From Euglena gracilis (Eukaryota): DNA of 64,000 nt. A program made the position numbers and the translations under genes. The stretch lies in NCBI GenBank assembly GCA_039621445.1, contig CP154954.1, positions 46,603,847-46,667,846 on the forward strand. The letters are read 5' to 3'. Within the stretch, counting starts at the first letter, position 1. Each line of letters starts with the position of its first letter. Below the pieces are notes generated by a model that saw nothing but the letters and a program-made list of their open reading frames with translations, had not been told where the DNA came from and did not search any database. Shown here piece by piece: positions 11,780-55,136 of the stretch.

Positions 11780-12380
11780 AGGGAATTGAACCTTTATACT
11801 GGGAAACATTCAGTGGAAAATTGGTTGCAGGAAAAGCGTTATGAGGCCATTTCAGTGGACATCAACCCAGGTTTTCACCGAACCCATCCCGTGGACATAC
11901 CTACCGTGGGAGTATCGAGCATACCCCCCTGGAAACTCTGAGTTCATAACGGCATTTGTGCCTTGCACAGGGTATAGCGGTGCTAAGACGGTGGGAGAAA
12001 GAAATTTGGAGTGGCAGACCAACTTGTGACAATAACTTTGTTAATCGTGGAATATTTTCAGCCCAAATTATGGTGGATTGAAAATCCCCGAACGAGACTT
12101 TTGCCAAAAACGCATTGTGTGCAACACTTGAATTTTATCGATGTGGATTATTGTCAATGTTCTGACTGGGGATACCAAAAACCCACTCGGATTTGGGGGA
12201 GTGAAAATTTGTTGAGTTTGAAAACAAACTTTGTGATGGGAAAAACCTGCCCGCATTTGATTGTGAGGGAAGGGGGTGGTTTGGTTCACAAAGAACAATT
12301 TGGAGGAAACGGAATGAGGGTGAGCATTCAACAAAAATGGGGGCCACCTGAAAAATTGGTTGAGTACCTTCTTTCGGTCC
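11780..12380 (+). pseudogene. C5 cytosine DNA methyltransferase domain, frameshifted (C1)
   Basis: Motif I-like LNLYTG, motif IV-like AFVPC, motif VI WIENP and DYCQ...GYQKPTRIW, split over three frames. Confidence 0.85.
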
Positions 12381-12906
12381 TTGATTTTAAGAAGAAAATA
12401 TTTTCCTTTAGGTATGAGGATTATGTCGTTCGAAACTCATTTGTGCAAATGATCGAGGAGAATTTTCAAATAAGGGCCGAGAGGAGAATCTTCAAAGAAG
12501 GGCCGAGGTGGATTTTTTTGCTTCTACCCAAAATTTTCAGTGCACATCATGTTTGACCGAGAAGGGAAATGCTTTGGCGGTACCATGGGGAGGGGTGGGG
12601 CACGGTTTGGTTGAACCCCCCCTTGGTCATTTTGGCCAAAGGTTGCAAAGAAATTGCGATTGCATCTTGAGTGATTGGAGCAAAAAGTTGGGTAAGGGAA
12701 TTTATCGGGAGGCATCAAAAAGTTTTATTTTCCACCCGGAAGCAAGCCTTAGTGTGAGGTGGGGAGTTTGGGCCTTGTTGATAGAGGGTAATACGTCCCC
12801 CGCTATCACCGGCAACCCCAAGAACCCTAGGATGGTAAAGTTGAAGTTACGAATGGCTAAAAGGAGGTACCCACCCACAGGGATTGAGAAATTTTTGAAG
12901 GAACGA

Positions 12907-13303
12907 CAACTTTTGATTCAGACTAGGGTTGTTTTGGGGAACGGTGAGGAAAAAAATATGGACATTTTGGGAGACACCGGTGCCGAGGCTAACCTCATTA
13001 GGCAAGGGTTAGTGAGTGAGCACCTGATGTATTCGGCCGAACACCCCTTGAGGTTTGAAACCACTAACGGTCAAGCCTTGAGTGGTGGGGGGAGGTGCAC
13101 TAATGTTGTGATGAAGTTGCAAGGGGAGGTGAGTGATAACACACCACCCACATATTTTGAGTACGATGTGGAATTTTATGAAGCCAATATCAAAGTGGAC
13201 GTAATTCTATCATACCAATGGCTTGTACGCACAAAAATCCGAGTTTTTCCACATCACCGTGCCTTGGTAGTGGAGGAACCGGAAGTGACATTTTTGTTCG
13301 GAG
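12907..13303 (+). pseudogene. Retropepsin-like aspartic protease (C1)
   Basis: ILGDTGAEANLI and VDVILSYQWL within ORF 12508-13584. Confidence 0.85.
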
Positions 13304-14071
13304 TGAGAGATCACAGGAGAAAACGGCAACAAAAAGTCCCTTGCACCCTACCCCAAGGAGGGGGTGTGACAAATTTGAAAAAGTTTGGCTTTCACCTTCC
13401 GATGGAGGGTTGTGATCAAAAGGTAAAAGCCTTGGACGAAGATTCACTCAAAAATTTGGGCAGGAAGTTGGAAACTGCAGGTGACAACCCCCTACCAATT
13501 CGCAAAATGATCATTGCAAGGGATGGGGAGGGTAGTAAAGAAACGGACTCCGAAGAGAAAGAGATAATAATAATAAAGCTATGAGACGAAATTTTTGGAA
13601 GGTATGATGGAACCGTATTTCGGTCTAAGGAACAACCCGACCCACCCGTAAGAGGACCATATGGTTATGCATTAATACCTTTGCAAGAAGGAGAACCTTT
13701 TTTCATGCACGGGGAACGAAAAGAAGCTTTGGAAAAAATCACTCAAGATTGGATCGATATGAAATTCATCGAGCCAGCCAAAACAAAATATTCAGAATGG
13801 CTCTCACAAACATTCCCCGTGCCAAAAAGTCAGCCGATTTCCCTTGGAGGGGGTTTTTGACGCAAGGGGACCCAACAGCCAAACCAGTAGATGCAACCGC
13901 CGTCTTCCTAAAATCGAAGACATCCTGGTGAAGCATGGTGCAAAAGATGTCGCATTTTGGATATAAAACATGCCTTCCACCAACAGCCGCTTTACCCGCA
14001 TCGCAGGCCTACTATAACTTGCTCCTTCCCAACAAAGGGTCTTTACCAATGGAGGGTGGATGTAATGGGGT

Positions 14072-14304
14072 TGTGGCATTGGACATGTCCCTACCTTTCA
14101 GATGAATTAGGCTGCGCCAGATAATGCACGCGTGCTGCACATTGTGATTTTTGTTTTTTATGTACCGTCAGACCTCACGAGTTGATTGCTGGGCCCATGG
14201 GTCGTGGCCCCCTGGCGTATCTGGATCAATCGACTGACTGAAGGTTTGTACTGTGGCTGAAGTTTAAGAAATTGAAGTGTAAGTTGCCTGCCAATGGGTA
14301 GGAA
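14072..14304. mobile_element. 5' part of the solo-LTR-like insert, truncated at the tandem junction (C1)
   Basis: Starts TGTGGCATTGG right after ...ATGGGGT of RT and is homologous to the left part of 26603-27053. Confidence 0.75.
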
Positions 14305-17300
14305 AATCATTTTGGTGCAATTATCCACCCTTGCAGCTTGATTTCAGGAAGCGCAATGGCTCATTTTCCAGTTGAGCGGTGATTCCGCGAACTTTTCCCA
14401 CTGTTTTTCCCAAGCGCATGAAAGTTCTGCCTACTTGCGCATCCCCTTGGGGGTTGCCTTTTGGCCCCCTCAACCTGCCCCATCCTTTACCTACCCTTGC
14501 CTTGGCCAAAAAGGCTGTGGGGTCCCCTTAGGGGAAAGTGGGGCCTCAAAAAGCCCTTGTGGGGCCTTGGAGCCCCCTCGCGGCCCTTCGTGGCCCCTTT
14601 GGGCCCCCGTGTGACTCCTCCTTGGGGCAGGCACCGCTGGACCGCGCACAAGATGTTCAGTGGACCATAGATTAACAGCCAACGAGGGGACGTTAATTTT
14701 GACACAGCCAGACCCTGAAAATTTAATGTCAGCAGATTTAACAGCTGAGTCTTCTAATCTGGCCATAGGGGGGCCAGCCGGGCTGTTAAATCATGCAGTG
14801 TCTAACATGGAAATAAGGAGGGATGAGGAAATGGCACTAGCACTACCTGTTTTTCAGCCCCCCGTTTTTGGACCACGGCCCACCGAATCAAATTGTTAGA
14901 TGATGGGGGGTGATGCTATGACTTTAGTTTGACTCTTTGGACCAGGAATTGAGCTGGAGCATAACTAACCGGGAGAGCATAATTCCCTCCCAGGTCGTAA
15001 TTGAAAATCGGCTGGAAGATTGTGAGAAGAATTTGGCTGAAAAGAATGCCAGAGCACAGGCAGAACTTTTGCAACCCATTCCTGAAAATATGGGGAGGCG
15101 AACGGTTGAAATGTGCAGCCAGTTTGAGCACGAAAAACCAAAAAGTCAGGAGCAAATTCAGCAATCAGTCAGTCAATTTATTTTTTGATTCCAGGATAGG
15201 GGGAGTGCTGTGGGAAACATTGCGAACAGCCACAAACAGCTTTTGGGGATTGAAGTTAAAAGGCAGATCGAAGGAAAGTTTCATGATCTTGAGAAAAAGT
15301 TACGAGATTTTCTGGGTGGTGAACTGGCACAATTTGAGAGCCATGGAAAAGATGGCCAGATAGAATTGCTTGCACCAGGTGGGTTGATCGAACAAGTTGG
15401 AATTTGTTCGCATTCTGTTGAGGGAATTAACTCAGATTTTCAGAAGGAAATTTTTTGCAGTTCGACAAGCAAATCGTGAGCTCTGCTCTGGGGTGGACAG
15501 AAAAATTGCTGAAAACGCTGCTGGGCTGAAAATGGTGGGGGAGGAATCAAAATCAAGTTTTGGGACATTGGCCCAGGAAAATCAGCAGCGATTTGACGCA
15601 ACTGGAAACGAGAGCAAAGCTCTGGGGGGTAGGATCACAGCAACTGAGAAATTTCTGGGCAGCTAGGAGGTGCCTTGGGAGAAGGTGGTTGAAATGCTGG
15701 GGAAATCAGAAGCAACAATTCAACTGGATGTTTGGAGGGAAATGGCCGCCCAGGTCAGAAAAATGATGAAATCTTTGATGGTGCAAATGAAGGATGAAAA
15801 TCTGAGGCAACCCCAAAAGGAAGAACATTTTTAAAAATTGCAGACTGACATTGAAATGGAGTGAAACAGCAATTTTTCACAGTTTTGATGAACATGCAGA
15901 CAGATTTTCAGTGTGAAAAGAGTTAACGGGATGGTTTGCAAAAAACCGTATCAAACTTTGCGGTTCGGGAAATTTCAGCCGAAAATGCACAGCAAACTGA
16001 CCGCAAGGCTCCTGAAGTGGCCCAGCCCAACGCAACATATCAAAAGAATTAAGGATGTTTTGGAATTAAGAGGGTGTCACCGGCTCAATCATCTTGGATT
16101 TTCGGGGTTAGGGGGTGACCACAACGATGCCATGTGAAGTCTGGGATGTAGATCTGAGCGGGTGCAGACCATCAAGTAGTTTGCAGGGGGTGCAATTGCA
16201 AAAAATCAGGTCATTGGCATTTGTGCAATGGGGGAGGCACCCCAACGACCCGCAGTCATAAGTGTTGGTAACCCAGCGGTGCAGCATGTGTTTAGAAATT
16301 TGATTGCACCCAAATTTTCGGGGAAATCTCAGGATTGGCTGCAATTTTGTGAGGTTTGGCAGGCGTTTTCAAGGAAACTGAATTCTGCAGGGGGGGAAGT
16401 GAGTGAAGATTTCAAAATTGCTCTCTTGGAGGATTGTCTTGACGAAACGAGCAAAAAAATTCTGAAGCTCCATCTCAATGAAGGGGAGATAACTTTTAAT
16501 GCCGTTTAGGGTCACCTGGAAATGACATTTTCAGGGAATCAGGAAGGTGGGGCAAAACAAAGTTGGCAGCAGGTGAGCCTTTTTAATATGGGCAAAGTAG
16601 CCCTTGAGGACTGGCTTGAGTTTCAGGCAAAGCTCAATATGGCCAAGTGCAAGGTTAAGGATGTCGGGGAGGGGGAAGCAAAACGACATTTGTTGCAGAA
16701 ACTTCCCTCATTCATCCTAAAATGGGTTTCATATGAGAGGAAATGGAGGCTGAATAATCAGCCACCCTTACGCCTAACGGTGCCAGTGAATAGGATTCAG
16801 AAATGATTTCGAACAGCTTGGGGAGAATGCTTGGGAAAAGACCCACAAAAGTGTCGGAAATTCACGAGGGGTAATTAGAAGTCATTTTCCCTGACATTTC
16901 TGCCTATGAAAAAGTCAAAAGTTTTTATGGCAAAGAGTTTGACGATTCAGTCGTTTTGTTTCAGGTTCAGGAAATTGAACCAATTTCGACCACCGAGGAT
17001 ATTTTCAACCTCGTGAAAACAAAGTTGACACTCAGAAACAAAAATGAAGCCTTGCAAAGTTGTTTTTCATCATCAGGCTATCAAGGGTTTAGGCGTTCAA
17101 GATCGGTTGGCGCTGAAAATCGATGGGGTGACAATCGGGGAGCCGGAAGGGTATACCCCGGGTAGGGCAACGAAACATCCCCCAACCAGAAGCAAATCAC
17201 AAATCAGCGAAACAGCATAACCTGATCAATCTGTTGCGTTATCATCCTCAAATGTGCAGACATCAAGCACTTCTTCAATGCTGAAAATTGTGGAGAACCC

Positions 17301-18026
17301 ACCCAATGGGCAAAGACCGGTGGTGGGGGGGGCACAATGGATCACACCCCCGTCACAATCAACAACGCCCTATTTTGCTAGACAAGCCCCGTGGAACAGA
17401 AACAATTTTCAGCCGTATGACAAAGGCAGCCAAGGGAAAGGAGGGAACAATTCCCAGGGATATGGGAAAAATAACACCCAATGGTATGGAGGGAACCAAC
17501 AGGGGTACAAGGGGAAGGGTGGTAAGGGCAGGGGGAGACAGAAGGTTATGACCAGAATTTCAGTTCCAAAGGGGGGAATGGCAAGAACAATAACCCTACA
17601 CCAACGATGGCCCCCCCTGTACGCCTTTAGGGATGCTGGGGTAAAATTTATCAGGGGCTTATGACCCCAGGCAGTGAAACCCCCAACCCCAGCTTCTAAA
17701 CCTGACCCTTCCACCCATAAACACCAAACCACGAACAATCGAACCACAAACGAAATGACCGGGAGCGGAAGCTTGGAGTGTAAGTCAAATTGGCTGGCCG
17801 AGCCCAGCGTGATTGAGTGAGGGAGCGGGAAGCCAAGACCCCCCGGAGCCAAGGAGAGCAGGCACGGCGAGGAAGCGGGCGAAGAAGGTATGAAGGGGAA
17901 GCGAATCCCCTCCCATTCCTTTCGCGTGCACATCCCTCCCAATTCCACATGCCAATACAAAACTCTCATGATTGTTTGAGTGGAAATAGGTGGGCCTCAA
18001 ACAAAAAGTTGGCCAGAAACTTTCCC

Positions 18027-18627
18027 AGGGAATTGAACCTTTATACTGGGAAACATTCAGTGGAAAATTGGTTGCAGGAAAAGCGTTATGAGGCCATTTC
18101 AGTGGACATCAACCCAGGTTTTCACCGAACCCATCCCGTGGACATACCTACCGTGGGAGTATCGAGCATACCCCCCTGGAAACTCTGAGTTCATAACGGC
18201 ATTTGTGCCTTGCACAGGGTATAGCCGTGCTAAGACGGTGGGAGAAAGAAATTTGGAGTGGCAGACCAACTTGTGACAATAACTTTGTTAATCGTGGAAT
18301 ATTTTCAGCCCAAATTATGGTGGATTGAAAATCCCCGAACGAGACTTTTGCCAAAAACGCATTGTGTGCAACACTTGAATTTTATCGATGTGGATTATTG
18401 TCAATGTTCTGACTGGGGATACCAAAAACCCACTCGGATTTGGGGGAGTGAAAATTTGTTGAGTTTGAAAACAAACTTTGTGATGGGAAAAACCTGCCCG
18501 CATTTGATTGTGAGGGAAGGGGGTGGTTTGGTTCACAAAGAACAATTTGGAGGAAACGGAATGAGGGTGAGCATTCAACAAAAATGGGGGCCACCTGAAA
18601 AATTGGTTGAGTACCTTCTTTCGGTCC
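18027..18627 (+). pseudogene. DNMT domain, frameshifted (C2)
   Basis: LNLYTG, AFVPC, WIENP and KPTRIW as in C1. Confidence 0.85.
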
Positions 18628-19153
18628 TTGATTTTAAGAAGAAAATATTTTCCTTTAGGTATGAGGATTATGTCGTTCGAAACTCATTTGTGCAAATGAT
18701 TGAGGAGAATTTTCAAATAAGGGCCGAGAGGAGAATCTTCAAAGAAGGGCCGAGGTGGATTTTTTTGCTTCTACCCAAAATTTTCAGTGCACATCATGTT
18801 TGACCGAGAAGGGAAATGCTTTGGCGGTACCATGGGGAGGGGTGGGGCACGGTTTGGTTGAACCCCCCCTTGGTCATTTTGGCCAAAGGTTGCAAAGAAA
18901 TTGCGATTGCATCTTGCGTGATTGGAGCAAAAAGTTGGGTAAGGGAATTTATCGGGAGGCATCAAAAAGTTTTATTTTCCACCCGGAAGCAAGCCTTAGT
19001 GTGAGGTGGGGAGTTTGGGCCTTGTTGATAGAGGGTAATACGTCCCCCGCTATCACCGGCAACCCCAAGAACCCTAGGATGGTAAAGTTGAAGTTACGAA
19101 TGGCTAAAAGGAGGTACCCACCCACAGGGATTGAGAAATTTTTGAAGGAACGA

Positions 19154-19550
19154 CAACTTTTGATTCAGACTAGGGTTGTTTTGGGGAACGGTGAGGAAAA
19201 AAATATGGACATTTTGGGAGACACCGGTGCCGAGGCTAACCTCATTAGGCAAGGGTTAGTGAGTGAGCACCTGATGTATTCGGCCGAACACCCCTTGAGG
19301 TTTGAAACCACTAACGGTCAAGCCTTGAGTGGTGGGGGGAGGTGCACTAATGTTGTGATGAAGTTGCAAGGGGAGGTGAGTGATAACACACCACCCACAT
19401 ATTTTGAGTACGATGTGGAATTTTATGAAGCCAATATCAAAGTGGACGTAATTCTATCATACCAATGGCTTGTACGCACAAAAATCCGAGTTTTTCCACA
19501 TCACCGTGCCTTGGTAGTGGAGGAACCGGAAGTGACATTTTTGTTCGGAG
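19154..19550 (+). pseudogene. Aspartic protease (C2)
   Basis: ILGDTGAEANLI in ORF 18755-19615. Confidence 0.85.
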
Positions 19551-22500
19551 TGAGAGATCACAGGAGAAAACGGCAACAAAAAGTCCCTTGCACCCTACCC
19601 CAAGGAGGGGTGTGACAAATTTGAAAAAGTTTGGCTTTCACCTTCCGATGGAGGGTTGTGATCAAAAGGTAAAAGCCTTGGACGAAGATTCACTCAAAAA
19701 TTTGGGCAGGAAGTTGGAAACTGCACGTGACAACCCCCTACCAATTCGCAAAATGATCATTGCAAGGGATGGGGAGGGTAGTAAAGAAACGGACTCCGAA
19801 GAGAAAGAGATAATAATAATAAAGCTATGAGACGAAATTTTTGGAAGGTATGATGGAACCGTATTTCGGTCTAAGGAACAACCCGACCCACCCGTAAGAG
19901 GACCATATGGTTATGCATTAATACCTTTGCAAGAAGGAGAACCTTTTTTCATGCACGGGGAACGAAAAGAAGCTTTGGAAAAAATCACTCAAGATTGGAT
20001 CGATATGAAATTCATCGAGCCAGCCAAAACAAAATATTCAGAATGGCTCTCACAAACATTCCCCGTGCCAAAAAGTCAGCCGATTTCCCTTGGAGGGGGT
20101 TTTTGACGCAAGGGGACCCAACAGCCAAACCAGTAGATGCAACCGCCGTCTTCCTAAAATCGAAGACATCCTGGTGAAGCATGGTGCAAAAGATGTCGCA
20201 TTTTGGATATAAAACATGCCTTCCACCAACAGCCGCTTTACCCGCATCGCAGGCCTACTATAACTTGCTCCTTCCCAACAAAGGGTCTTTACCAATGGAG
20301 GGTGGATGTAATGGGGTTGTGGCATTGGACATGTCCCTACCTTTCAGATGAATTAGGCTGCGCCAGATAATGCACGCGTGCTGCACATTGTGATTTTTGT
20401 TTTTTATGTACCGTCAGACCTCACGAGTTGATTGCTGGGCCCATGGGTCGTGGCCCCCTGGCGTATCTGGATCAATCGACTGACTGAAGGTTTGTACTGT
20501 GGCTGAAGTTTAAGGAATTGAAGTGTAAGTTGCCTGCCAATGGGTAGGAAAATCATTTTGGTGCAATTATCCACCCTTGCAACTTGATTTCAGGAAGCGC
20601 AATGGCTCATTTTCCAGTTGAGCGGTGATTCCGCGAACTTTTCCCACTGTTTTTCCCAAGCGCATGAAAGTTCTGCCTACTTGCGCATCCCCTTGGGGGT
20701 TGCCTTTTGGCCCCCTCAACCTGCCCCATCCTTTACCTACCCTTGCCTTGGCCAAAAAGGCTGTGGGGTCCCCTTAGGGGAAAGTGGGGCCTCAAAAAGC
20801 CCTTGTGGGGCCTTGGAGCCCCCTCGCGGCCCTTCGTGGCCCCTTTGGGCCCCCGTGTGACCCCTCCTTGGGGCGGGCACCGCTGGACCGCGCACAAGAT
20901 GTTCAGTGGACCATAGATTAACAGCCAACGAGGGGACGTTAATTTTGACACAGCCAGACCCTGAAAATTTAATGTCAGCAGATTTAACAGCTGAGTCTTC
21001 TAATCTGGCCATAGGGGGGCCAGCCGGGCTGTTAAATCATGCAGTGTCTAACATGGAAATAAGGAGGGATGAGGAAATGGCACTAGCACTACCTGTTTTT
21101 CAGCCCCCCGTTTTTGGACCACGGCCCACCGAATGAAATTGTTACATGATGGGGGGTGATGCTATGACTTTAGTTTGACTCTTTGGACCAGGAATTGAGC
21201 TGGAGCATAACTAACCGGGAGAGCATAATTCCCTCCCAGGTCGTAATTGAAAATCGGCTGGAAGATTGTGAGAAGAATTTGGCTGAAAAGAATGCCAGAG
21301 CACAGGCAGAACTTTTGCAACCCATTCCTGAAAATATGGGGAGGCGAACGGTTGAAATGTGCAGCCAGTTTGAGCACGAAAAACCAAAAAGCCAGGAGCA
21401 AATTCAGCAATCAGTCAGTCAATTTATTTTTTGATTCCAGGATAGGGGGAGTGCTGTGGGAAACATTGCGAACAGCCACAAACAGCTTTTGGGGATTGAA
21501 GTTAAAAGGCAGATCGAAGGAAAGTTTCATGATCTTGAGAAAAAGTTACGAGATTTTCTGGGTGGTGAACTGGCACAATTTGAGAGCCATGGAAAAGATG
21601 GCCAGATAGAATTGTTTGCACCAGGTGGGTTGATCGAACAAGTTGGAATTTGTTCGCATTCTGTTGAGGGAATTAACTCAGATTTTCAGAAGGAAATTTT
21701 TTGCAGTTCGACAAGCAAATCGTGAGCTATGCTCTGGGGTGGACAGAAAAATTGCTGAAAACGCTGCTGGGCTGAAAATAGTGGGGGAGGAATCAAAATC
21801 AAGTTTTGGGACATTGGCCCAGGAAAATCAGCAGCGATTTGACGCAACTGGAAACGAGAGCAAAGCTCTGGGGGGTAGGATCACAGCAACTGAGAAATTT
21901 CTGGGCAGCTAGGAGGTGCCTTGGGAGAAGGTGGTTGAAATGCTGGGGAAATCAGAAGCAACAATTCAACTGGATGTTTGGAGGGAAATGGCCGCCCAGG
22001 TCAGAAAAATGATGAAATCTTTGATGGAATGAAGGATGAAAATCTGAGGCAAACCCAAAAGGAAGAACACTTTTAAAAAATTGCAAACTGACATTGAAAT
22101 GGAGTGAAACAGCAATTTTTCACACTTTTGAACATGCAGACAGATTTTCAGTGTGAAAAGAGTTAACGGGATGGTTTGCAAAAAACCGTATTAAACTTTG
22201 CGGTTCGGGAAATTTCAGCCGAAAATGCACAGCAAACTGACCGCAAGGCTCCTGATGTGGCCCAGCCCAAGGCAACAAATCAAAAGAATTAAGGATTTTT
22301 TTGGAATTAAGAGGGTGTCACCGGCTCAATCATCTGGGATTTTCGGGATTAGGGGGTGACCACAACGATGCCATGTGAAGTCTGGGATGTAGATCTGAGC
22401 GGGTGCAGACCATCAAGTAGTTTGCAGGGGGTGCAGTTGCAAAAAATCAGGTCATTGGCATTTGTGCAATGGGGGAGGCACCCCAACGACCCGCAGTCAT

Positions 22501-24266
22501 AAGTGTTGGTAACCCAGCGGTGCAGCATGTGTTTAGAAATTTTATTGCACCCAAATTTTCGGGGAAATCTCAGGATTGGCTGCAATTTTGTGAGGATTGG
22601 CAGGCGTTTTCAAGGAAACTGAATTCTGCAGGGGGGGAAGTGAGTGAAGATTTTAAAGTTGCTCTGTTGGAGGATTGTCTTGACGAAACGAGCAAAAAAA
22701 TTCTGAAGCTCCGTCTCAATGAAGGAGGGATAATTTTAATGCCGTTTAGGGTCACCTGTAAATGACATTTTCAGGGAATCAGGAAGGTGGGGCAAAACAA
22801 AGTTGGCAGCAGGTGAGCCTTTTTAATATGGGCAAAGTAGCCCTTGAGGACTGGCTTGAGTTTCAGGCAAAGCTCAATATGGCCAAGTGCAAGGTTAAGG
22901 ATGTCGGGAAGGGGGAAGCAAAACGACATTTGTTGCAGAAACTTCCCTCATTCATCCTAAAAAGGGTTTCATATGAGAGGAAAAGGAGGCTGAATAATCA
23001 GCCACCCTTACGCCTAACGGTGCCAGTGAATAGGATTCAGAAATGGTTTCGGACAGCTTGGGGAGAATGCTTGGGAAAAGACCCACAAAAGTGTCGGAAA
23101 TTCACGAGGGGCAATTCGAAGTCATTTTCCCTGACATTTCTGCCTATGAAAAAGTCAAAAGTTTTTATGGCAAAGGGTTTGACGATTCAATCGTTTTGTT
23201 TCAGGTTCAGGAAATTGAACTAATTTCGACCACCGAGGATATTTTCAACCTCGTGAAAACAAAGTGAACACTCAGAAACAAAAATGAAGCCTTGCAAAGT
23301 TGTTTTTCATCCCCAGGCTATCAAGGGTTTAGGCGTTCAAGATCGGTTGGCGCTGAAAAGTCGACGGGGAGACAATCGGGGAGCCGGAAGGGTATACCCC
23401 GGGTAGGGCAACGAAACCTCCCCCAACCAGAAGCAAATCACAAATCAGCGAAACAGCATAACCTGATCAATCTGTTGCGTTATAATCTTCAAATGTGCAG
23501 ACATCAAGCACTTCTTCAAGGCTGACAACGGTGGAGAACCCGGCCAATGGGCAAAGACCGGTGGTGGGGGGGGGCACAATGGATCCCACCCCCGTCACAA
23601 TCAACAACGCCCTATTTTGCTAGACAAGCCCCGTGGAACAGAAACAATTTTCAGCCGTATGACAAAGGCAGCCAAGGGAAAGGAGGGAACAATTCCCAGG
23701 GATATGGGGAAAATAACACCCAATGGTATGGAGGGAACCAACAGGGGTACAAGGGGAAGGGTGGTAAGGGCAGGGGGAGACAGAAGGTTATGACCAGAAT
23801 TTCAGTGTCAAAGGGGGGAATGGCAAGAACAATAACCCTACACCAACGATCCCCACCCCATGTACGCCTTTAGGGATGCTGGGGTAAAATTTATCAGGGG
23901 CTTAAAATCCCACGCAGTGAAACCCCCAACCCAGCTTCTAAACCCGACCCTTCCACCCATAAACACCAAACCACGGAAAATCGAACCACAAACCAAATGA
24001 CCGGGAGCGGAGCTTGGAGTGAAGACAAATTGGCTGGCCGAGGCCAGCGTGATGGAGTGAGGGAGCGGGAAGCCAAGACCCCCCGGAGCCAAGGAGAGCA
24101 GGCACGGCGAGGAGGCGGGCGAAGGAGGTATGAAGGGGAAGCGAATCCCCTCCCATTCCTTTCGCGTGCACATCCCTCCCAATTCAACATGCCAATACAA
24201 AACTATCATGATTGTTTGAGTGGGAATAGGTGGGCCTCAAACAAAAAGTTGGCCAGAAACTTTCCC

Positions 24267-24866
24267 AGGGAATTGGACCTTTATTCTGGGAGTCATTCAG
24301 TGGAAAATTGGTTGCAGGAAAAGCGTTATGAGGCGATTTCAGTGGACATCAACCCAGGTTTTCACCGAACCCATCCCGTGGACATACCTACCGTGGGAGT
24401 ATCGAGCATACCCCCCTGCAAACTCTGAGTTCATAACGGCATTTGTGCCTTGCACGGGGTACAGCCGTGCTAAGAGGTGGGAGAAAGAAATTTGGAGTGG
24501 CAGACCAACTTGTGACAATAACTTTGTTAATCGTGGAATGTTTTCAGTATAAAATATGGTGGATTGAAAATCCCCGAACGGGAGTTTTGCCAGAAAGGCA
24601 TTGTGTGCAACACTTGAATTTTATCGATGTGGATTATTGTCAATGTTCTGACTGGGGAGACCAAAAACCCACTCGGATTTGGGGGAGTGAAAATATGTTG
24701 AGTTTGAGAACAAACTTTGTGATGGGAAAAACCTGCCCGCATTTGATTGTGAGGGAAGGGGGTGGTTTGGTTCACAAAGAACAATTTGGAGGAAACGGAA
24801 TGAGGGTGAGCATTCAACAAATATGGGGGCCACCTGAAAAATTGGTTGAGTACCTTCTTTCGGTCC
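24267..24866 (+). pseudogene. DNMT domain, frameshifted (C3)
   Basis: LDLYSG, AFVPC, WIENPRTG and KPTRIW. Confidence 0.85.
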
Positions 24867-25417
24867 TTGATTTTAAGAAGAAAAGATTTTCCTTCAGGTG
24901 TGAGGATTACGCCGTTCGAAACTCATTTGTCCAAATGATCGAGGAGAATTTTCAAATGAGGGCCGAGAGGAGAATCTTCAAAGAAGGGCCGAGGTGGATT
25001 TTTTTGCTTCTACCCAAAATTCTCAGTGCACATCATGTTTGACCGAGAAGGGAAATGCTTTGGCGGTACCATGGGGAGGGGTGGGGCACGGTTTGGTTGA
25101 ACCCCCCCTTGGTCATTTTGGCCAAAGGTTGCAAGGAAATTGCGATTGCATCTTGCGTGATTGGAGCAAAGGTTGAGTAAGGCAATTTATCGGGAGGCAT
25201 CAAAAAGTTTTATTTTCCACCCAGAAGCAAGCTTTTTGAGGTGGATTGGAAACCAATGGGGGGTGTTAGGTGGGGAGTTTGGGCCTTGTTGATAGAGGGT
25301 AATAAGTCCCCCGCTATCACCGGCAACCCCAAGAAACCTAGGGTGGTACAGTTGAAGTTACGAATGGCTAAAAGGAGGTACCCACCCACAGGGATTGAGA
25401 AATTTTTGAAGGACCGA

Positions 25418-25814
25418 CAACTTTCGATTCGGACAAGGGTTGTTTTGGGGAACGGTGGGGAACAAAATATGGACATTTTGGTAGACACCGGTGCCGATGC
25501 TAACCTCATTAGGTAAGGGTTAGTGAGTGTGCACCTGATGTTTTCGGCCGAACACCCCTTGAGGTTTGAAACCACTAACGGTCAAGCCTTGAGTGGTGGG
25601 GGGAGGTGCACTAATGTTGTGATGAAGTTGCAAGGGGAGGTGAGTGATAACACACCACCCACATATTTTGAGTACGATGTGGAATTTTATGAAGCCAATA
25701 TCAAAGTGGACGTAATTCTATCATACCAATGGCTTGTACGTACAAAAATCGGAGTTTTTCCACATCACCGTGCCTTGGTAGTGGAGGAACCGGAATTGAC
25801 ATTTTTGTTCGGAG
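25418..25814 (+). pseudogene. Aspartic protease with in-frame stop (C3)
   Basis: ILVDTGADANLIR followed by TAA. Confidence 0.85.
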
Positions 25815-36807: not shown

Positions 36808-37081
36808 AGGTCGCTGGGCTGATGGTGGGGAGTTGGGCTGTGGCAGGTTTGTATGCAAAATGGGAACCCTTGAACATTTCCCTTCCCTCCAGGAGTATCG
36901 GGTCCGATTCAAAAATCTGGGGGGCTGATCCAAAGAATGTTTCTCACCACACCCCGAATCAGCCATAAAATCCTGTACACCCCAGTTTTTTGAATCAGAA
37001 ATATTTACACCGTTTTCCTCACAGGGGGGAGAGACACGGCCATGGGCAGCCCCCCCCCTTCTCAAACTGCCCCTGGCCCCC

Positions 37082-41241: not shown

Positions 41242-41862
41242 CATTTGCAATTGAAATTCCAAATTCAATACTTGATTGTAATTGAATTGCCACAAAAAGT
41301 ACAATGGTGCAACCGGTAAAGAGGAAAACCCTGTGAAAAGAAAGTGATTTTGATGCCCTTGATGGGCAGTTAAATTTAGGATTGAGTGCGCTGATTCCTA
41401 AGCGCTCTCAAAACCCCAAATCCTTACCCATTGCATCAAAATCAACCAACCCAGGTCAAAATCAAGGTTCCCCCCCTTGATTTTGATAAATTATGCTCAA
41501 TTCCATCATTATTGAGCTTTGCAAATCCCTACAAAAACTCCAGGAACTCAGGCGCCAATCTCAGAGAAATCTGTTCCAAGCGCTTGCAAGCGCTCTCACC
41601 AAATCCAACATTTTCCCTTAAAACCAAAGGAAAAATGCATAAAAAGCTTAAAAATATGCTAAATAGACCCAAAATGACCATTTGGGAATACCTAGCATCA
41701 CTGAATCTCTCTCCTTGCACAACCAAACCATGGGCGCCCTAGGAGAGGGAATTTTAATGGAAATCTTTAGAAAGCCTTAAAATTAGAGTTAAACCGCCCT
41801 TAAAAAGGCCTTCTAAAAAGGAAAAACTCCGCCGCCCGGCGGTCGACCTCAAAAGGTCGTCA
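40772..41862 (-). repeat. 5' LTR of element B (1091 bp)
   Basis: TG...CA, followed by the PBS and flanked by TSD CACG. Confidence 0.95.
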
Positions 41863-42388
41863 CACGTGCCAAGCAAGTTCAAGGCGGGAGACTTTGAAGG
41901 GACCCATATATTCAACACCCATTCCACCGGCACCCATGGCGAGTGTGGCCTTAGATGTTTTCAAAATGCCATTGGCAAAGTATGAGGGGGAAAAGTACAA
42001 TACCATGGCGGTGTGTGTTGACCGGCACTCCGGTTGGATCGTGGCCATACCGTTTTTAGAAAACGCTCAAACATTCGGGGGCTTTTCGGATTCCTTCAAT
42101 CATTTCTAGTGACCAAGGGAGTCATTTCGCGAACACATGGTGGCAAACCTTGTGCTCATTTTTGGGACTTCGACAAGCTTTTTCTCAAGGCTACCACCAA
42201 GAAGCCAACGGGCCGGTGGAAAGGGGGTCAACAAGTAATGCAGATTTTGACGAAATTCTTTGTGGACGGAAAAATGATTTGGGTTGAGGCTCTACCCCAA
42301 ACCTTGGACAGGCGTCTTGATGTGAAGGGGGAGTGTGGTTTTAGCCCACACCAAATTATGACCGGTATGAAACGTCCCTTTGGGGGGG
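41863..42388 (+). pseudogene. pol: Continuation of element C integrase, degraded and truncated by the duplication junction
   Basis: TCQAS...STPIPPAPMASVALDVF...VCVDRHSGWIVAIP and WVEALPQTLDR. Joins KNCV at 28795. Confidence 0.9.
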
Positions 42389-43216
42389 GGATATGACCGC
42401 CTAGGAGCCCTATCCGGGTATGAGCAGGATATGAGCCTGCCCCCCCCCTTCCACACCTCTCCCATCTGCTTTTCAGCGATTCGCTTGACCAACCCCGCGT
42501 GCCTTTGGCACACCCAAAGTGGGTGGATGGGCCACTTTGTCAGGAAACCTGCCAAGCCCCGTTTCCCACAGTGGGCTTTTTTACACCCCACCTAAGCCGA
42601 AACGGCTAATAGGTAACCGCGAAACGCGGCTAACCTTTTGCACGTTTTTGGGCTTTGGGTGGATGCCACTGTGCGGAAAGGAGAGACACCGAATGGAGAA
42701 GTGAACCCCACCTGGGGCAGCGTCAGATATCCTGACTGGACTGGAAATCCTGGTCCATGAAGGAAATCGGGCGTAGCCCTGGGAGGGGGATGTGTACCAG
42801 GCACGTCCCAGCTCTGTAGGATATCTGCAGAGTGGGTTCTGTGACGGTCACACCACTGTGGAAAACCACAGCTGGTAGGATCGTGGCAGACCCTTCTGGG
42901 ATCTGCCACTGGACGCGTCAGCACTTTTCTCTCCTTCCCCCAAAGGTGGTATTCTTCACTGTCATCACTTCCAAGTTTGACCATTGGTTTTGTCAGAGGG
43001 AAAAACCCTCGGAACAGTCGAACTTGATCTCAGAAGAAACTTCTGAGTCTTTGCTTTGTGCTTTGCTTCTTGGGGAATTGGGAAGAAAAGGGGAAAACCA
43101 CTTTTCGTTACTCCAAAGACTTTTCCCTACCATAAGTAGGCTGCGCACCAAGGCGAAAGCGAAAGGCTTTTACAGAAAGTCCCAAAAAGGGGAAAAGGGA
43201 AAGCTTTGGACGTACA
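42389..43216. repeat. Repeat family A, partial copy 3
   Basis: Near identical to 5960-6787, including the CTGGAGG flank. Confidence 0.9.
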
Positions 43217-44119
43217 CTGGAGGTTGGTTGTCGTTTTGCGAGCATCCATTTGGACCCGAAAAGCCCTTGTACATCATATGTCGAACTCGAATTGAAGAAC
43301 GCCTTCACCTCATTCGTGAAAAGAAAGGGAAGAGAAAATAAAACTTTCTCTTTTTGGAGCTTTCTTCTTCCTCACCCACAACATCCGTCATCTAAGGAAC
43401 TGTGTACCAAGCACGATCCCAGTTCTATGGTTCGCCATAGAACAACTCCGTCACAATCTGAATTCGGAGTATAGTCTCAGAAGTGGGTGGGATTGTGGCT
43501 GAGCTTGGGGAAATTCGTTCACAACCATGTGTGATCACGCGACCTCCTCTGTGCAGGTGTTATTCTTTTCTTCGCTTGATTTCAAGTTTGATCTGTTCTG
43601 TGAAGTCCGGAAAGGACAGCCAAATCACTTGGCATTATTTGTTGTAGCCCATAAGGCTCTTTCGCCTGCCTTGTGCTCTGCTGTCTTAAGTGGGGGAAAG
43701 GGCTTTACTACTTTTCAACAAATGTATTATCTTATTTTTTTTGTTAAGCATTGACTCACTGAACAGGTAAGCCTCCTTCCCAGCGTGTGTCACACCCATC
43801 GGTGTTCGTGTCGAGTAATCATCCCCCCGCCCAATGGGCACCCCCACACCCATCAGCGTCCACCTCTATAGAGTTACCCAATGCCCAACAGGCACAAGCC
43901 CTTTTGTTAGAAAGCCGATCAGCTATCAGCTATTCCCCCCGAAGGAGATCTCGCACTGGTGCCGATAGGCACATTTGACTATAAGGAGGATGCGCCACGA
44001 CAACTTTTTGTCAAGGGTGGGTTATAAACGCCGTGTTTTTTCCAACCCCTCCCCATGCGCTTCCCTTCACAAGTCCAATAGAACAAATGCCAGTACCACC
44101 TGATGCGGATCATTTTTCT

Positions 44120-47100: not shown

Positions 47101-50100
47101 CTGCCTATGAAAAAGTCAAACGTTTTTATGGCAAAGAGTTTGACGATTCAGTCGTTTTGTTTCAGGTTCAGGAAATTGAACCAATTTCGACCACCGAGGA
47201 TATTTTCAACCTCGTGAAAACAAAGTTGACACTCAGAAACAAAAATGAAGCCTTGCAAAGTTCTTTTTCATCCCCAGGCTATCAAGGGTTTAGGCGTTCA
47301 AGATCGGTTGGCGCTGAAAATCGATGGGGTGACAATCGGGGAGCCGGAAGGGTATACCCCGGGTAGGGCAACGAAACATCCCCCAACCAGAAGCAAATCA
47401 CAAATCAGCGAAACAGCATAACCTGATCAATCTGTTGCGTTATCATCCTCAAATGTGCAGACATCAAGCACTTCTTCAATGCTGAAAATTGTGGAGAACC
47501 CACCCAATGGGCAAAGACCGGTGGTGGGGGGGGCACAATGGATCCCACCCCCGTCACAATCAACAACGCCCTATTTTGCTAGACAAGCCCCGTGGAACAG
47601 AAACAATTTTCAGCCGTATGACAAAGGCAGCCAAGGGAAAGGAGGGAACAATTCCCAGGGATATGGGGAAAATAACACCCAATGGTATGGAGGGAACCAA
47701 CAGGGGTACAAGGGGAAGGGTGGTAAGGGCAGGGGGAGACAGAAGGTTATGACCAGAATTTCAGTTCCAAAGGGGGGAATGGCAAGAACAATAACCCTAC
47801 ACCAACGATGGCCCCCCCATGTACGCCTTTAGGGATGCTTGGGTAAAATTTATCAGGGGCTTATGACCCCAGGCAGTGAAACCCCCAACCCCAGCTTCTA
47901 AACCTGACCCTTCCACCCATAAACACCAAACCACGAACAATCGAACCACAAACGAAATGACCGGGAGCGGAGCTTGGAGTGTAAGTCAAATTGGCTGGCC
48001 GAGCCCAGCGTGATTGAGTGAGGGAGCGAGAAGCCAAGACCACCCGGAGCCAAGGAGAGCAGGCACGGCGAGGAAGCGGGCGAAGAAGGTATGAAGGGGA
48101 AGCGAATCCCCTCCCATTCCTTTCGCGTGCACATCCCTCCCAATTCCACATGCCAATACAAAACTCTCATGATTGTTTGAGTGGAAATAGGTGGGCCTCA
48201 AACAAAAAGTTGGCCAGAAACTTTCCCAGGGAATTGGACCTTTATTCTGGGAGTCATTCAGTGGAAAATTGGTTGCAGGAAAAGCGTTATGAGGCCGTTT
48301 CAGTGGACATAAACCCAGGTTTTCACCGAACCCATCCCGTGGACATACCTACCGTGGGAGTATCGAGCATACCCCCCTGGAAACTCTGAGTTCATAACGG
48401 CATTTGTGCCTTGCACGGGGTACAGCCGTGCTAAGAGGTGGGAGAAAGAAATTTGGAGTGGCAGACCAACTTGTGACAATAACTTTGTTAATCGTGGAAT
48501 ATTTTCAGCCCAAATTATGGTGGATTGAAAATCCCCGAACGAGACTTTTGCCAAAAACGCATTGTGTGCAACACTTCAATTTTATCGATGTGGATTATTG
48601 TCAATGTTCTGACTGGGGATACCAAAAACCCACTCGGATTTGGGGGAGTGAAAATTTGTTGAGTTTGAAAACAAACTTTGTGATGGGAAAAACCTGCCCG
48701 CATTTGATTGTGAGGGAAGGGGGTGGTTTGGGTCACAAAGAACAATTTGGAGGAAACGGAATGAGGGTGAGCATTCAACAAAAATGGGGGCCACCTGAAA
48801 AATTGGTTGAGTACCTTCTTTCGGTCCTTGATTTTAAGAAGAAAATATTTTCCTTTAGGTATGAGGATTATGTCGTTCGAAACTCATTTGTGCAAATGAT
48901 TGAGGAGAATTTTCAAATAAGGGCCGAGAGGAGAATCTCCAAAGAAGGGCCGAGGTGGATTTTTTTGCTTCTACCCAAAATTTTCAGTGCACATCATGTT
49001 TGACCGAGAAGGGAAATGCTTTGGCGGTACCATGGGGAGGGGTGGGGCACGGTTTGGTTGAACCCCCCCTTGGTCATTTTGGCCAAAGGTTGCAAAGAAA
49101 TTGCGATTGCATCTTGCGTGATTGGAGCAAAAAGTTGGGTAAGGTAATTTATCGGGAGGCATCAAAAAGTTTTATGTTCCACCCGGAAGCAAGCCTTAGT
49201 GTGAGGTGGGGAGTTTGGGCCTTGTTGATAGAGGGTAATACGTCCCCCGCTATCACCGGCAACCCCAAGAAACCTAGGATGGTAAAGTTGAAGTTACGAA
49301 TGGCTAAAAGGAGGTACCCACCCACAGGGATTGAGAAATTTTTGAAGGAACGACAACTTTTGATTCAGACTAGGGTTGTTTTGGGGAACGGTGAGGAAAA
49401 AAATATGGACATTTTGGGAGACACCGGTGCCGAGGCTAACCTCATTAGGCAAGGGTTAGTGAGTGAGCACCTGATGTATTCGGCCGAACACCCCTTGAGG
49501 TTTGAAACCACTAACGGTCAAGCCTTGAGTGGTGGGGGGAGGTGCACTAATGTTGTGATGAAGTTGCAAGGGGAGGTGAGTGATAACACACCACCCACAT
49601 ATTTTGAGTACGATGTGGAATTTTATGAAGCCAATATCAAAGTGGACGTAATTCTATCATACCAATGGCTTGTACGCACAAAAATCCGAGTTTTTCCACA
49701 TCACCGTGCCTTGGTAGTGGAGGAACCGGAAGTGACATTTTTGTTCGGAGTGAGAGATCACAGGATAAAACGGCAACAAAAAGTCCCTTGCACCCTACCC
49801 CAAGGAGGGGGTGCGACAAATTTGAAAAAGTTTGGCTTTCACCTTCCGATTCAAAAGGTAAAAGCCTTGGACGAAGATTCACTCAAAAATTTGGGCAGGA
49901 AGTTGGAAACTGCAGGTGACAACCCCCTACCAATTCGCAAAATGATCATTGCAAGGGATGGGGAGGGTAGTAAAGAAACGGACTCCGAAGAGAAAGAGAT
50001 AATAATAATAAAGCTATGAGACGAAATTTTTGGAAGGTATGATGGAACCGTATTTCGGTCTAAGGAACAACCCGACCCACCCATAAGAGGACCATATGGT

Positions 50101-50739: not shown

Positions 50740-53700
50740 AATCATTTTGGTGCAATTATCCACCCTTGCAACTTGATTTCAGGAAGCGCAATGGCTCATT
50801 TTCTAGTTGAGCGGTGATTCCGCGAACTTTTCCCACTGTTTTTCCCAAGCGCATGAAAGTTCTGCCTACTTGCGCATCCCCTTGGGGGTTGCCTTTTGGC
50901 CCCCTCAACCTGCCCCATCCTTTACCTACGCTTGCCTTGGCCAAAAAGGCTGTGGGGTCCCCTTAGGGGAAAGTGGGGCCTCAAAAAGCCCTTGTGGGGC
51001 CTTGGAGCCCCCTCGCGGCCCTTCGTGGCCCCTTTGGGCCCCCTTGTGACCCCTCCTTGGGGCGGGCACCGCTGGACCGCGCACAAGATGTTCAGTGGAC
51101 CATAGATTAACAGCCAACGAGGGGACGTTAATTTTGACACAGCCAGACCCTGAAAATTTAATGTCAGCAGATTTAACAGCTGAGTCTTCTAATCTGGCCA
51201 TAGGGGGGCCAGCCGGGCTGTTAAATCATGCAGTGTCTAACATGGAAATAAGGAGGGATGAGGAAATGGCACTAGCACTACCTGTTTTTCAGCCCCCCGT
51301 TTTTGGACCACGGCCCACCGAATCAAATTGTTAGATGATGGGGGGTGATGCTATGACTTTAGTTTGACTCTTTGGACCAGGAATTGAGCTGGAGCATAAC
51401 TAACCGGGAGAGCATAATTCCCTCCCAGGTCGTGATTGAAAATCGGCTGGAAGATTGTGAGAAGAATTTGGCTGAAAAGAATGCCAGAGCACAGGCAGAA
51501 CTTTTGCAACCCATTCCTGAAAATATGGGGAGGCGAACGGTTGAAATGTGCAGCCAGTTTGAGCACGAAAAACCAAAAAGTCAGGAGCAAATTCAGCAAT
51601 CAGTCAGTCAATTTATTTTTTGATTCCAGGATAGGGGGAGTGCTGTGGGAAAACATTGCGAACAGCCACAAACAGCTTTTGGTGATTGAAGTTAAAAGGC
51701 AGATCGAAGGAAAGTTTCATGATCTTGAGAAAAAGTTACGAGATTTTCTGGGTGGTGAACTGGCACAATTTGAGAGCCATGGAAAAGATGGCCAGATAGA
51801 ATTGTTTGCACCAGGTGGGTTGATCGAACAAGTTGGAATTTGTTCGCATTCTGTTGAGGTAATTAACTCAGATTTTCGGAAGGAAATTTTTTGCAGTTCG
51901 ACAAGCAAATCGTGAGCTCTGCTCTGGGGTGGACAGAAAAATTGCTGAAAACGCTGCTGGGCTGAAAATGGTGGGGGAGGAATCAAAATCAAGTTTTGGG
52001 ACATTGGCCCAGGAAAATCAGCAGCGATTTGACGCAACTGGAAACGAGAGCAAAGCTCTGGGGGGTAGGATCACAGCAACTGAGAAATTTCTGGGCAGCT
52101 AGGAGGTGCCTTGGGAGAAGGTGGTTGAAATGCTGGGGAAATCAGAAGCAACAATTCAACTGGATGTTTGGAGGGAAATGGCCGCCCAGGTCAGAAAAAT
52201 GATGAAATCTTTGATGGAATGAAGGATGAAAATCTGAGGCAAACCCAAAAGGAAGAACACTTTTAAAAATTGCAAACTGACATTGAAATGGAGTGAAACA
52301 GCAATTTTTCACAGTTTTGATGAACATGCAGACAGATTTTCAGTGTAAAAAGAGTTAACGGGATGGTTTGCAAAAAACCGTATCAAACTTTGCGGTTCGG
52401 GAAATTTCAGCCGAAAATGCACAGCAAACTGACCGCAAGGCTCCTGATGTGGCCCAGCCCGAGGCAACAAATCAAAAGAATTAAGGATTTTTTTGGAATT
52501 AAGAGGGTGTCACCGGCTCAATCATCTGGGATTTTCGGGATTAGGGGGTGACCACAACGATGCCATGTGAAGTCTGGGATGTAGATCTGAGCGGGTGCAG
52601 ACCATCAAGTAGTTTTCCGGGGGTGCAATTGCAAAAAATCAGGTCATTGGCATTTGTGCAATGGGGGAGGCACCCCAACGACCCGCAGTCATAAGTGTTG
52701 GTAACCCAGCGGTGCAGCATGTGTTTAGAAATTTGATTGCACCCAAATTTTCGGGGAAATCTCAGGATTGGCTGCAATTTTGTGAGGATTGGCAGGCGTT
52801 TTCAAGGAAACTGAATTCTGCAGGGGGGGAAGTGAGTGAAGATTTTAAAGTTGCTCTGTTGGAGGATTGTCTTGACGAAACGAGCAAAAAAATTCTGAAG
52901 CTCCATCTCAATTAAGGGGAGATAAATTTTAATGCCGTTTAGGGTCACCTGGAAATGACATTTTCAGGGAATCAGGAAGGTGGGGCAAAACAAAGTTGGC
53001 AGCAGGTGAGCCTTTTTAATATGGGCAAAGTAGCCCTTGAGGACTGGCTTGAGTTTCAGGCAAAGTTCAATATGGCCAAGTGCAAGGTTAAGGATGTCGG
53101 GAAGGGGGAAGCAAAACGACATTTGTTGCAGAAACTTCCCTCATTCATCCTAAAAAGGGTTTCATATGAGAGGAAAAGGAGGCTGAATAATCAGCCACCC
53201 TTACGCCTAACGGTGCCAGTGAATAGGATTCAGAAATGGTTTCGGACAGCTTGGGGAGAATGCTTGGGAAAAGACCCACAAAAGTGTCGGAAATTCACGA
53301 GGGGCAATTCGAAGTCATTTTCCCTGACATTTCTGCCTATGAAAAAGTCAAAAGTTTTTATGGCAAAGAGTTTGACGATTCAATCGTTTTGTTCAGGTTC
53401 AGGAAATTGAACTAATTTCGACCACCGAGGATATTTTCAACCTCGTGAAAACAAAGTGAACACTCAGAAACAAAAATGAAGCCTTGCAAAGTTGTTTTTC
53501 ATCCCCAGGCTATCAAGGGTTTAGGCGTTCAAGATCGGTTGGCGCTGAAAGTCGACGGGGAGACAATCGGGGAGCCGGAAGGGTATACCCCGGGTAGGGC
53601 AACGAAACCTCCCCCAACCAGAAGCAAATCGCAAATCAGCGAAACAGCATAACCTGATCAATCTGTTGCGTTATAATCTTCAAATGTGCAGACATCAAGC

Positions 53701-54536
53701 ACTTCTTCAAGGCTGACAACGGTGGAGAACCCACCCAATGGGCAAAGACCGGTGGTGGGGGGGGCACAATGGATCCCACCCCCGTCACAATCAACAACGC
53801 CCTATTTTGCTAGACAAGCCCGGTGGAACAGAAACAATTTTCAGCCGTATGACAAAGGCAGCCAAGTGAAAGGAGGGAACAATTCCCAGGGATATGGGGA
53901 AAATAACACCCAGTGGTATGGAGGGAACCAACAGGGGTACAAGGGGAAGGGTGGTAAGGGCAGGGGGAGACAGAAGGTTATGACCAGAATTTCAGTGTCA
54001 AAGGGGGGAATGGCAAGAACAATAACCCTACACCAACGATCCCCACCCCATGTACGCCTTTAGGGATGCTGTGGAAAAAGTAAAAAAAAAAAAAAAACAA
54101 AAAAAAAAAAAAAAAAAGAAACAAAAAAAAAAAAAAAAAAAAAAGAAAACAAAACACACCCCCCCACAAAAAAAAAAAAAAAAACAGTGAAACCCCCAAC
54201 CCAGCTTCTAAACCCGACCCTTCCACCCATAAACACCAAACCACGGACAATCGAACCACAAACCAAATGACCGGGAGCGGAGCTTGGAGTGAAGACAAAT
54301 TGGCTGGCCGAGGCCAGCGTGATGGAGTGAGGGAGCGGGAAGCCAAGACCCCCCGGAGCCAAGGAGAGCAGGCACGGCGAGGAGGCGGGCGAAGGAGGTA
54401 TGAAGGGGAAGCGAATCCCCTCCCATTCCTTTCGCGTGCACATCCCTCCCAATTCCACATGCCAATACAAAACTATCATGATTGTTTGAGTGGGAATAGG
54501 TGGGCCTCAAACAAAAAGTTGGCCAGAAACTTTCCC

Positions 54537-55136
54537 AGGGAATTGGACCTTTATTCTGTGAGTCATTTAGTGGAAAATTGGTTGCAGGAAAAGCGTTATG
54601 AGGCGATTTCAGTGGACATCAACCCAGGTTTTCACCGAACCCATCCCGTGGACATACCTACCGTGGGAGTATCGAGCATACCCCCCTGGAAACTCTGAGT
54701 TCATAACGGCATTTGTGCCTTGCACGGGGTACAGCCGTGCTAAGAGGTGGGAGAAAGAAATTTGGAGTGGCAGACCAACTTGTGACAATAACTTTGTTAA
54801 TCGTGGAATGTTTTCAGCCCAAAACATGGTGGATTGAAAATCCCCGAACGGGAGTTTTGCCAGAAAGGCATTGTGTGCAACACTTGAATTTTATCGATGT
54901 GGATTATTGTCAATGTTCTGACTGGGGAGACCAAAAACCCACTCGGATTTGGGGGAGTGAAAATATGTTGAGTTTGAGAACAAACTTTGTGATGGGAAAA
55001 ACCTGCCCGCATTTGATTGTGAGGGAAGGGGGTGGTTTGGTTCACAAAGAACAATTTGGAGGAAACGGAATGAGGGTGAGCATTCAACAAAAATGGGGGC
55101 CACCTGAAAAATTGGTTGAGTACCTTCTTTCGGTCC
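54537..55136 (+). pseudogene. DNMT domain, frameshifted (C5)
   Basis: LDLYSV, AFVPC, WIENPRTG and KPTRIW. Confidence 0.85.

Follow-up and report, generated by a model that had tools for sequence, protein, structure and literature searches.

Two DNMT-bearing retrotransposon families share a locus in Euglena gracilis

We analyzed a stretch of 64,000 nt from Euglena gracilis (assembly GCA_039621445.1, contig CP154954.1, positions 46,603,847–46,667,846 of the forward strand; hereafter the window, with positions counted from its first letter), which holds two families of long terminal repeat (LTR) retrotransposons, B and C, that carry a DNA cytosine-5 methyltransferase (DNMT). A six-frame scan, combined with a tblastn search of the window using the B frame, located six DNMTs, all lying after a Gag-like region and before the protease (PR): one of family B on the minus strand (36220–36810), an open frame with LDLFAG, SPPC, ENP and KPTR, and five of family C on the plus strand (starts 11777, 18024, 24264, 48225 and 54534; E about 1e-32 to 1e-36). 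An earlier account of the window, made by a model from its letters alone (the sequence-only reading), had pointed to motifs shared by B and C between Gag and PR. Motifs and position are real, but YFQPKLWWIENPRT and DVDYCQCSDWGYQKPTRIW match exactly in three of the five C copies (copies 3 and 5 deviate), and in C a second, Dam-like methyltransferase, which that account had overlooked, stands before PR.

The B element (28796–41862, minus strand, 13.07 kb) lies within the integrase (IN) of C and is frameshifted in Pol. Its ends are TG..CA, with a 4-bp target duplication, and its LTRs are 98.0% identical, the 5' one (40772–41862) followed by a primer-binding-site-like sequence and the 3' one (28796–29884) preceded by a polypurine run. 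PR (35674–36075) comes about 50 codons past the DNMT with no intervening Dam, and reverse transcriptase (RT), RNase H (RH), IN and chromodomain (31803–35085) are split over three frames. In an open-frame B copy of 1756 aa, Pfam yields the order DNMT-RT-RH-IN-chromodomain, with the DNMT and chromodomain matches under cut-off (PF00385 in B, E 0.009 and 2e-4). No match to Dam was found in any of four open-frame B copies; the DNMT-PR linker of B measures 51 aa. Short tandem repeats occupy part of the 3' untranslated region of the window copy (30245–30533).

All five C copies go back to one dead insertion by duplication. A head-to-tail array of three units of about 6.24 kb, each spanning part of Gag to the start of RT, fills 8065–26823, and a segmental duplicate of 5960–33718 (98–99% identical) follows at 42389–64000, which holds two C units and, from 59064 on, another copy of B represented by its 3' part. 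Relative to an open-frame C copy, 10 indels (four within the DNMT) and 115 substitutions are common to all five, which belong to the C1 subfamily described below. Each unit presents, on the plus strand, a frameshifted DNMT, a remnant of a Dam-like N6-adenine methyltransferase and an aspartic protease, located respectively at 11777–12388, 12410–12810 and 12904–13293 (copy 1); 18024–18635, 18657–19057 and 19151–19540 (copy 2); 24264–24874, 24902–25321 and 25415–25804 (copy 3); 48225–48835, 48857–49257 and 49351–49740 (copy 4, a mosaic of copy 3/5 and copy 1/2 types); and 54534–55144, 55166–55590 and 55684–56073 (copy 5). The Dam remnants are shattered by indels, several of them in copy 1 (weak match, E 0.005). 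Decayed RT, RH and the start of IN occupy 26136–28795, and the remainder of IN (C1 type) resumes beyond the B insertion at 41863–42387; no LTR of the window C element was recognized. Because these copies descend from a single dead insertion, as their common indels and the duplication structure indicate, they were rejected as independent evidence and count as one observation. About 450 bases (26604–27053) interrupting C's RT have no match in open-frame copies, and an inverted join lies near 26823.

Intact copies define family C

A search of the genome (2.37 Gb, 46 contigs) with the C DNMT, in which 150 of 8430 candidates were scored, recovered C copies with open frames of up to 1887 aa spread over the genome. 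We compared 30 C loci: the five window copies, two that lie about 410 kb away and duplicate the same dead insertion, and 23 elsewhere. The last group reads ASVPC (22 of 23) or SSVPC (1 of 23) and, throughout, LDLFSG. In the window, AFVPC is present in all five C copies and LYSG in two, the remaining three having LYTG, LYTG and LYSV. AFVPC and LYSG, given by the sequence-only reading as differences of C from B, are thus products of decay; younger C copies do carry SxPC, a check that the same account had suggested.

Pfam resolves an open-frame C copy (1887 aa) into DNMT-Dam-RT-RH-IN-chromodomain, with Dam (PF05869, E 1.3e-10) and the chromodomain after IN (PF00385, E 1.8e-8) both over cut-off; the position of PR between DNMT(-Dam) and RT was set by blastp in B and C alike. 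In open-frame C copies, Dam separates DNMT from PR and its NPPW motif is intact. An open-frame copy is flanked by a 4-bp target duplication and ends in TG..CA, its LTRs being 99–100% identical; primer-binding sites starting with TGG are present in window B and one C copy. Given the order PR-RT-RH-IN, these LTR features and the chromodomain after IN, both B and C belong to the chromodomain Ty3/gypsy LTR retrotransposons. LTR elements of E. gracilis that carry a chromodomain, a DAM (NPP motif) and a DNMT have been named EpiLTRs, with low LTR expression, in a preprint whose main text is considered here (Fernandez-Moreno et al., bioRxiv 10.64898/2026.05.21.726589). Since DAM, DNMT and chromodomain stand together in single C LTR elements (L155, L161), family C counts as an EpiLTR-type element and B as a relative of such elements with a DNMT only.

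Two further features of C copies were noted. The 5' LTR of a young copy contains a 253-bp insert (L419:2867-3119) bounded by 14-bp terminal inverted repeats and by what looks like a short target duplication, resembling a miniature inverted-repeat transposable element. A short piece of the Pol linker (L155:4285-4462) reaches 20–30-fold RNA depth in each of the three RNA runs, bounded on either side by fixed loose ends, and therefore also belongs to another, better expressed transcript.

The DNMT is under strong purifying selection

An MG codon model fitted to single copies of B, E, C1, C2, D and H (six copies from five families; D, E and H are further DNMT families of this genome) gave an omega of 0.118 for the DNMT, next to 0.126 for PR, 0.087 for IN and 0.044 for RT. 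For the DNMT, omega = 1 was rejected (likelihood ratio test, 2dL = 374, p about 1e-83). The Dam of C1, C2, D and H (four copies) showed an omega of 0.165. Direct counting of dN/dS between B and C runs into synonymous saturation (saturated throughout, with a proportion of synonymous differences of 0.72–0.79 in the DNMT, which is as saturated as RT); we therefore relied on the codon model and on the pairing of C with D. In the unsaturated C2-D pair, the two DNMT halves lie at 0.05 and 0.14, against 0.75 for the N-terminal and 0.54 for the RH-IN linker, the two loosest; two shorter linkers lie at 0.22 and 0.29. Amino-acid identity between B and C amounts to 53–56% in the DNMT, 39–40% in PR, 70–72% in RT and 27–41% in linkers. 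Within-family dN/dS is low as well, but biased, the copies having been chosen by likeness to the query and an open frame. Saturation, recombination and open-frame copy choice qualify the omega values. The DNMT is thus under strong purifying selection, as the sequence-only reading had supposed, at an omega of 0.12 instead of the value near 1 that it had named as contrary evidence.

DNMT and RT trees point to inheritance from the B/C ancestor

Trees of 12 taxa (nine from this genome and three outside proteins with both domains) share six internal splits between DNMT and RT, including F+P0086, I+P0115 and I+P0115+P0096, which join different genomes. The DNMT data accept the RT tree in the approximately unbiased (AU) test (0.13 with 12 taxa, 0.365 with eight) and, with eight taxa, reject three trees modelling a recent B-C transfer (0.005, 0.004 and 4e-6). 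Pairwise DNMT and RT distances are correlated (Mantel rho 0.73, p 0.0014), as are those of PR (0.86) and IN (0.90). The DNMT's own best tree places family J with C, D and H at weak support. On the RT tree, family K, which has no DNMT, groups with the DNMT-bearing family F, which implies a loss or a gain of the DNMT. Because the DNMT is synonymously as saturated as RT, its data accept the RT topology and recent transfer is rejected, the domain was likely inherited from the common ancestor of B and C, which agrees with the age that the sequence-only reading had assigned to it.

Recombination has produced a chimeric DNMT

Recombinational transfer, the other finding that the sequence-only reading had said would speak against it, was encountered in part: rejected for recent exchange between B and C, it did occur within C and D. 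Among 23 loci, family C divides into subfamilies C1 (15 loci) and C2 (eight loci). C2 shares about 95% identity with C1 save for two tracts nearer to D (76–93% and 92–95%), one covering the Pol linker and DNMT motifs I–III and the other running from IN to the chromodomain (L155:4130-4720 and 8300-9800, compared with L157 and L161). The switch point falls just ahead of motif IV, where informative sites change from 37:1 to 5:80 (p 8e-25). C2 is therefore a C1/D recombinant whose chimeric DNMT derives partly from the sister family D, and its presence as a C subfamily implies that the chimeric DNMT remained open and spread. Separately, in both C1 and C2 a stretch within the first half of RT resembles D (90–95% to D).

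Methyltransferase-bearing families across the genome

Pfam and protein searches, complemented by 100 evenly spaced 10-kb stretches (941,603 readable bases), revealed eight DNMT families in this genome. The order is DNMT-PR in B, E and I, DNMT-Dam-PR in C, D and H, and Dam-DNMT-PR in J, so that the DNMT precedes PR in seven of the eight; in F it runs into RT with no PR between. Family K has PR-Dam-RT without a DNMT, and in one gypsy copy (L249:4220-9319) its Dam has His replacing the catalytic Asn and CpG depletion is absent. DNMTs occurred in 5 of the 100 sampled stretches and in 5 of the 8 with a gypsy RT, which suggests roughly 10,000 DNMT copies in the genome with a wide error (first-look counts, 8,400–10,200).

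Some other loci of this kind deserve mention. L169:2250-5490 is rearranged, with PR-Dam on the plus and DNMT-RT on the minus strand, and among the 150 matches scored neither part has a close relative, the next best reaching 53% and 45%. In a tree of 13 Dam sequences, the L169 Dam joins C/D/H (bootstrap 100) and its RT does not, a mere hint given the rearrangement. L211:3950-6586 is a DIRS-like element with RT, RH, Dam (NPPW) and a recombinase-like frame. In the window itself, LTR and 3' pieces resembling K lie at 751–3445, 6356–6789 and 42785–43218.

Relatives in other genomes and a likely viral-type source

Outside this genome, relatives of the DNMT form 2444 clusters (E up to 0.001), and 37 of 202 outside proteins examined hold another element domain. 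In these 37, the DNMT lies before PR in 16, after PR in 10, beside RH or IN in three and directly before RT in one, and seven have only a Dam as the additional domain; the position before PR is common, not fixed. In P0114, P0142 and P0194, the same DNMT is sited after RH or before IN.

Stand-alone relatives were found in 80 viral contigs at 33–44% identity (164–342 aa, median 236 aa), and in 79 of these the DNMT was the sole one of the element domains searched. They resemble the element DNMT in the ENP and Y.KxTR.W motifs and over most of its length, and the listed small C5 methyltransferases of Bacillus phages (28–29% identity) share the same motifs and likewise align over most of its length. 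Unlike the element DNMT inside Pol, the viral and phage enzymes are free-standing genes, the viral ones without retroelement domains. A tree was built from 39 element DNMTs and 27 of the 80 viral ones, with cellular DNMTs left out; in it, all 39 element sequences fall into one clade, sister to two viral contigs (SH-aLRT 99.8). L384 and L411 are the viral contigs nearest to the element DNMTs, and L411 carries a stand-alone gene of 259 aa amid unannotated virus-like genes. Since a single clade among stand-alone viral genes unites the element DNMTs, one old capture from a virus-type gene followed by long retention is likely; the wording of the sequence-only reading, 'not a one-off capture', fits these data poorly.

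Predicted enzyme fold and Gag-Pol junction

The DNMT comprises about 200 aa at the start of Pol and has motifs I, IV (PC), VI (ENP) and VIII. Its structural model (predicted local distance difference test score, pLDDT, 95.5) confidently adopts a C5-methyltransferase fold, with DNMT3B/3A, DNMT1, M.HaeIII and M.HhaI as best fold matches (probability 1.00; 14–18% identity to DNMT3); a sequence search of the PDB with the DNMT returned no match at E up to 1. The domain is thus predicted to have the full C5-methyltransferase fold. Across 87 sequences, the catalytic Cys and the Glu of motif VI are invariant and the motif VIII Arg is kept in at least 90%, and the S-adenosylmethionine (SAM)-binding motif I is kept in all nine family or subfamily types aligned.

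A single stop codon stands directly before the Pol frame in all 10 copies inspected, from seven families (L153, L155, L161, L165 and L333–L338). It is TAG followed by GG or GA in B, C, D, E and H and TGA in I and J, and in copies of B, C, D and E the in-frame Gag ends on it. Gammaretroviruses produce Gag-Pol by stop-codon readthrough, and the arrangement seen here suggests the same. At the end of B's Gag (L153:4001-4152), an RNA peak whose loose ends are fixed and whose tail is A-rich suggests a short deleted, polyadenylated B derivative.

Discussion

We favor, with moderate confidence in the whole, the reading that both families are Ty3/gypsy elements with a chromodomain whose selected DNMT probably entered by a single viral capture before their split and acts on the element's own DNA. 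Readthrough of the stop codon would give a Gag-Pol carrying the DNMT, which would be packaged into the particle and, as an active enzyme, could methylate the newly made cDNA. The target would probably be CG, which fits the near-default CG methylation of the host reported in the preprint's main text (bioRxiv 10.64898/2026.05.21.726589). From the viral source through readthrough, packaging and catalytic activity to the cDNA substrate and CG target, these are steps that we infer.

Several observations weigh against this reading. RNA depth over the DNMT is about 0–2 in three runs from two studies, with sparse multi-copy reads that look unstranded and may reflect DNA carry-over. Six DNMT families have an observed/expected CpG ratio of 0.51–0.61, but family I has 0.98; K, which lacks the DNMT, has 0.96, and a further element with no DNMT seen has 0.18. 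CpG depletion does not track DNMT presence. CpG ratios and C/T spectra gave no clear sign of the element's own enzyme: CG sites do differ most in six of seven families, but host methylation accounts for that. About 200 aa leave scant space for a target-recognition region. Among published assays, element Dams gave no 6mA gain in E. coli according to the preprint's main text (bioRxiv 10.64898/2026.05.21.726589), and two of three element DNMT types gave no methylation in the portion available of de Mendoza 2018 (PMC5890265). The between-family omega is model-dependent owing to saturated B-C dS, and recombination violates the single-tree assumption of the codon model. The clade implying a single capture has moderate support (SH-aLRT 81.6) in a tree without cellular DNMTs, and the DNMT's best tree is rejected by RT (AU 1e-6) and IN (0.002) data because of family J, which leaves room for an old swap.

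Some of these points would suit an ancestral, selected domain that acts by binding, holding the integration complex on DNA or chromatin or working on RNA, instead of methylating cDNA. The shortness of the domain, the lack of association of CpG depletion with the DNMT, the negative heterologous assays for related passengers in the sources as available, and family K's retention of a Dam-like domain with His for the catalytic Asn all lean that way. Invariant catalytic residues, PC/ENP/TR residues kept in at least 90% and a SAM-binding motif kept in all types aligned speak against binding alone, however, and the stand-alone viral relatives are just as small; we regard this explanation as unlikely, though worth keeping in sight. 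It is rather less probable that the DNMT was absent from the B/C ancestor and spread as a mobile cassette among existing gypsy families by old recombination. Such a history would account for the motifs I–III swapped from D into a C subfamily, the varied positions in multi-domain relatives (after PR in 10 of 37, beside RH/IN in 3 of 37), the grouping of J's DNMT apart from its RT and the pairing of K with F, but it sits badly with the rejection of recent B-C transfer, the six splits common to both trees and the DNMT-before-PR order in seven of eight families. That the DNMT is a neutral passenger, or its likeness an artefact of duplicated dead copies, we consider next to impossible: although all five window C copies are dead duplicates, the omega results refute it (0.12, p about 1e-83 against 1), C frames stay open up to 1887 aa across the genome, and the loosest linkers of the same frame lie at 0.54–0.75.

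A bolder version of the favored reading, which as a whole we hold to be improbable, would make the virus-derived mini DNMT a core gene on the level of PR in a chromovirus clade (about 10,000 copies here, with relatives elsewhere). It would be an active enzyme on CG, methylating cDNA already inside the particle. As a module it would be swapped and moved to new positions, with Dam coming and going, and it would add to the near-default CG methylation of the host.

Elements of this kind have already been published, and the additions here are quantitative: omega, tree fit, the chimeric DNMT and positional variants. As described in its main text, the EpiLTR preprint matches family C in DAM, DNMT and chromodomain; its screen was DAM-based, and the DNMT-only families B, E and I are not discussed there. 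It places the EpiLTR DNMT as sister to DNMT4 and calls it a separate acquisition (bioRxiv 10.64898/2026.05.21.726589), whereas the nearest stand-alone relatives in our comparison, made without DNMT4, are viral. That main text contains no dN/dS, Euglena DNMT-versus-RT test, intra-domain recombination or readthrough, although its supplements may list C or B. No dN/dS or congruence test for these families appeared in the literature searched, which lay outside subscription journals and preprint supplements, and the part of PMC12344493 at hand held nothing further on these elements. In the available text of de Mendoza 2018 (PMC5890265), SymbioDIRS-Dnmt3 performs de novo CG methylation in yeast, retrotransposon DNMTs are under purifying selection (Ka/Ks <0.2) and cDNA self-methylation is proposed. 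KnitGypsy-Dnmt3, SymbioDIRS-Dnmt3 and SymbioLINE-Dnmt likewise place a C5-DNMT within retrotransposon ORFs, but as far as described there they are Dnmt3-derived or LINE-borne; the B/C domain has about 200 aa and no PDB sequence match. By fold and sequence searches, Dnmt3-type enzymes resemble that domain in fold at 14–18% identity and viral genes are far closer in sequence.

In conclusion, the DNMT is no recent hitch-hiker, being held as tightly as the protease in at least five families, with or without Dam. Families with DNMT only (B, E, I), with DNMT and Dam (C, D, H, J) and with Dam only (K), together with a natural chimeric DNMT, provide built-in controls for the function of element methyltransferases.

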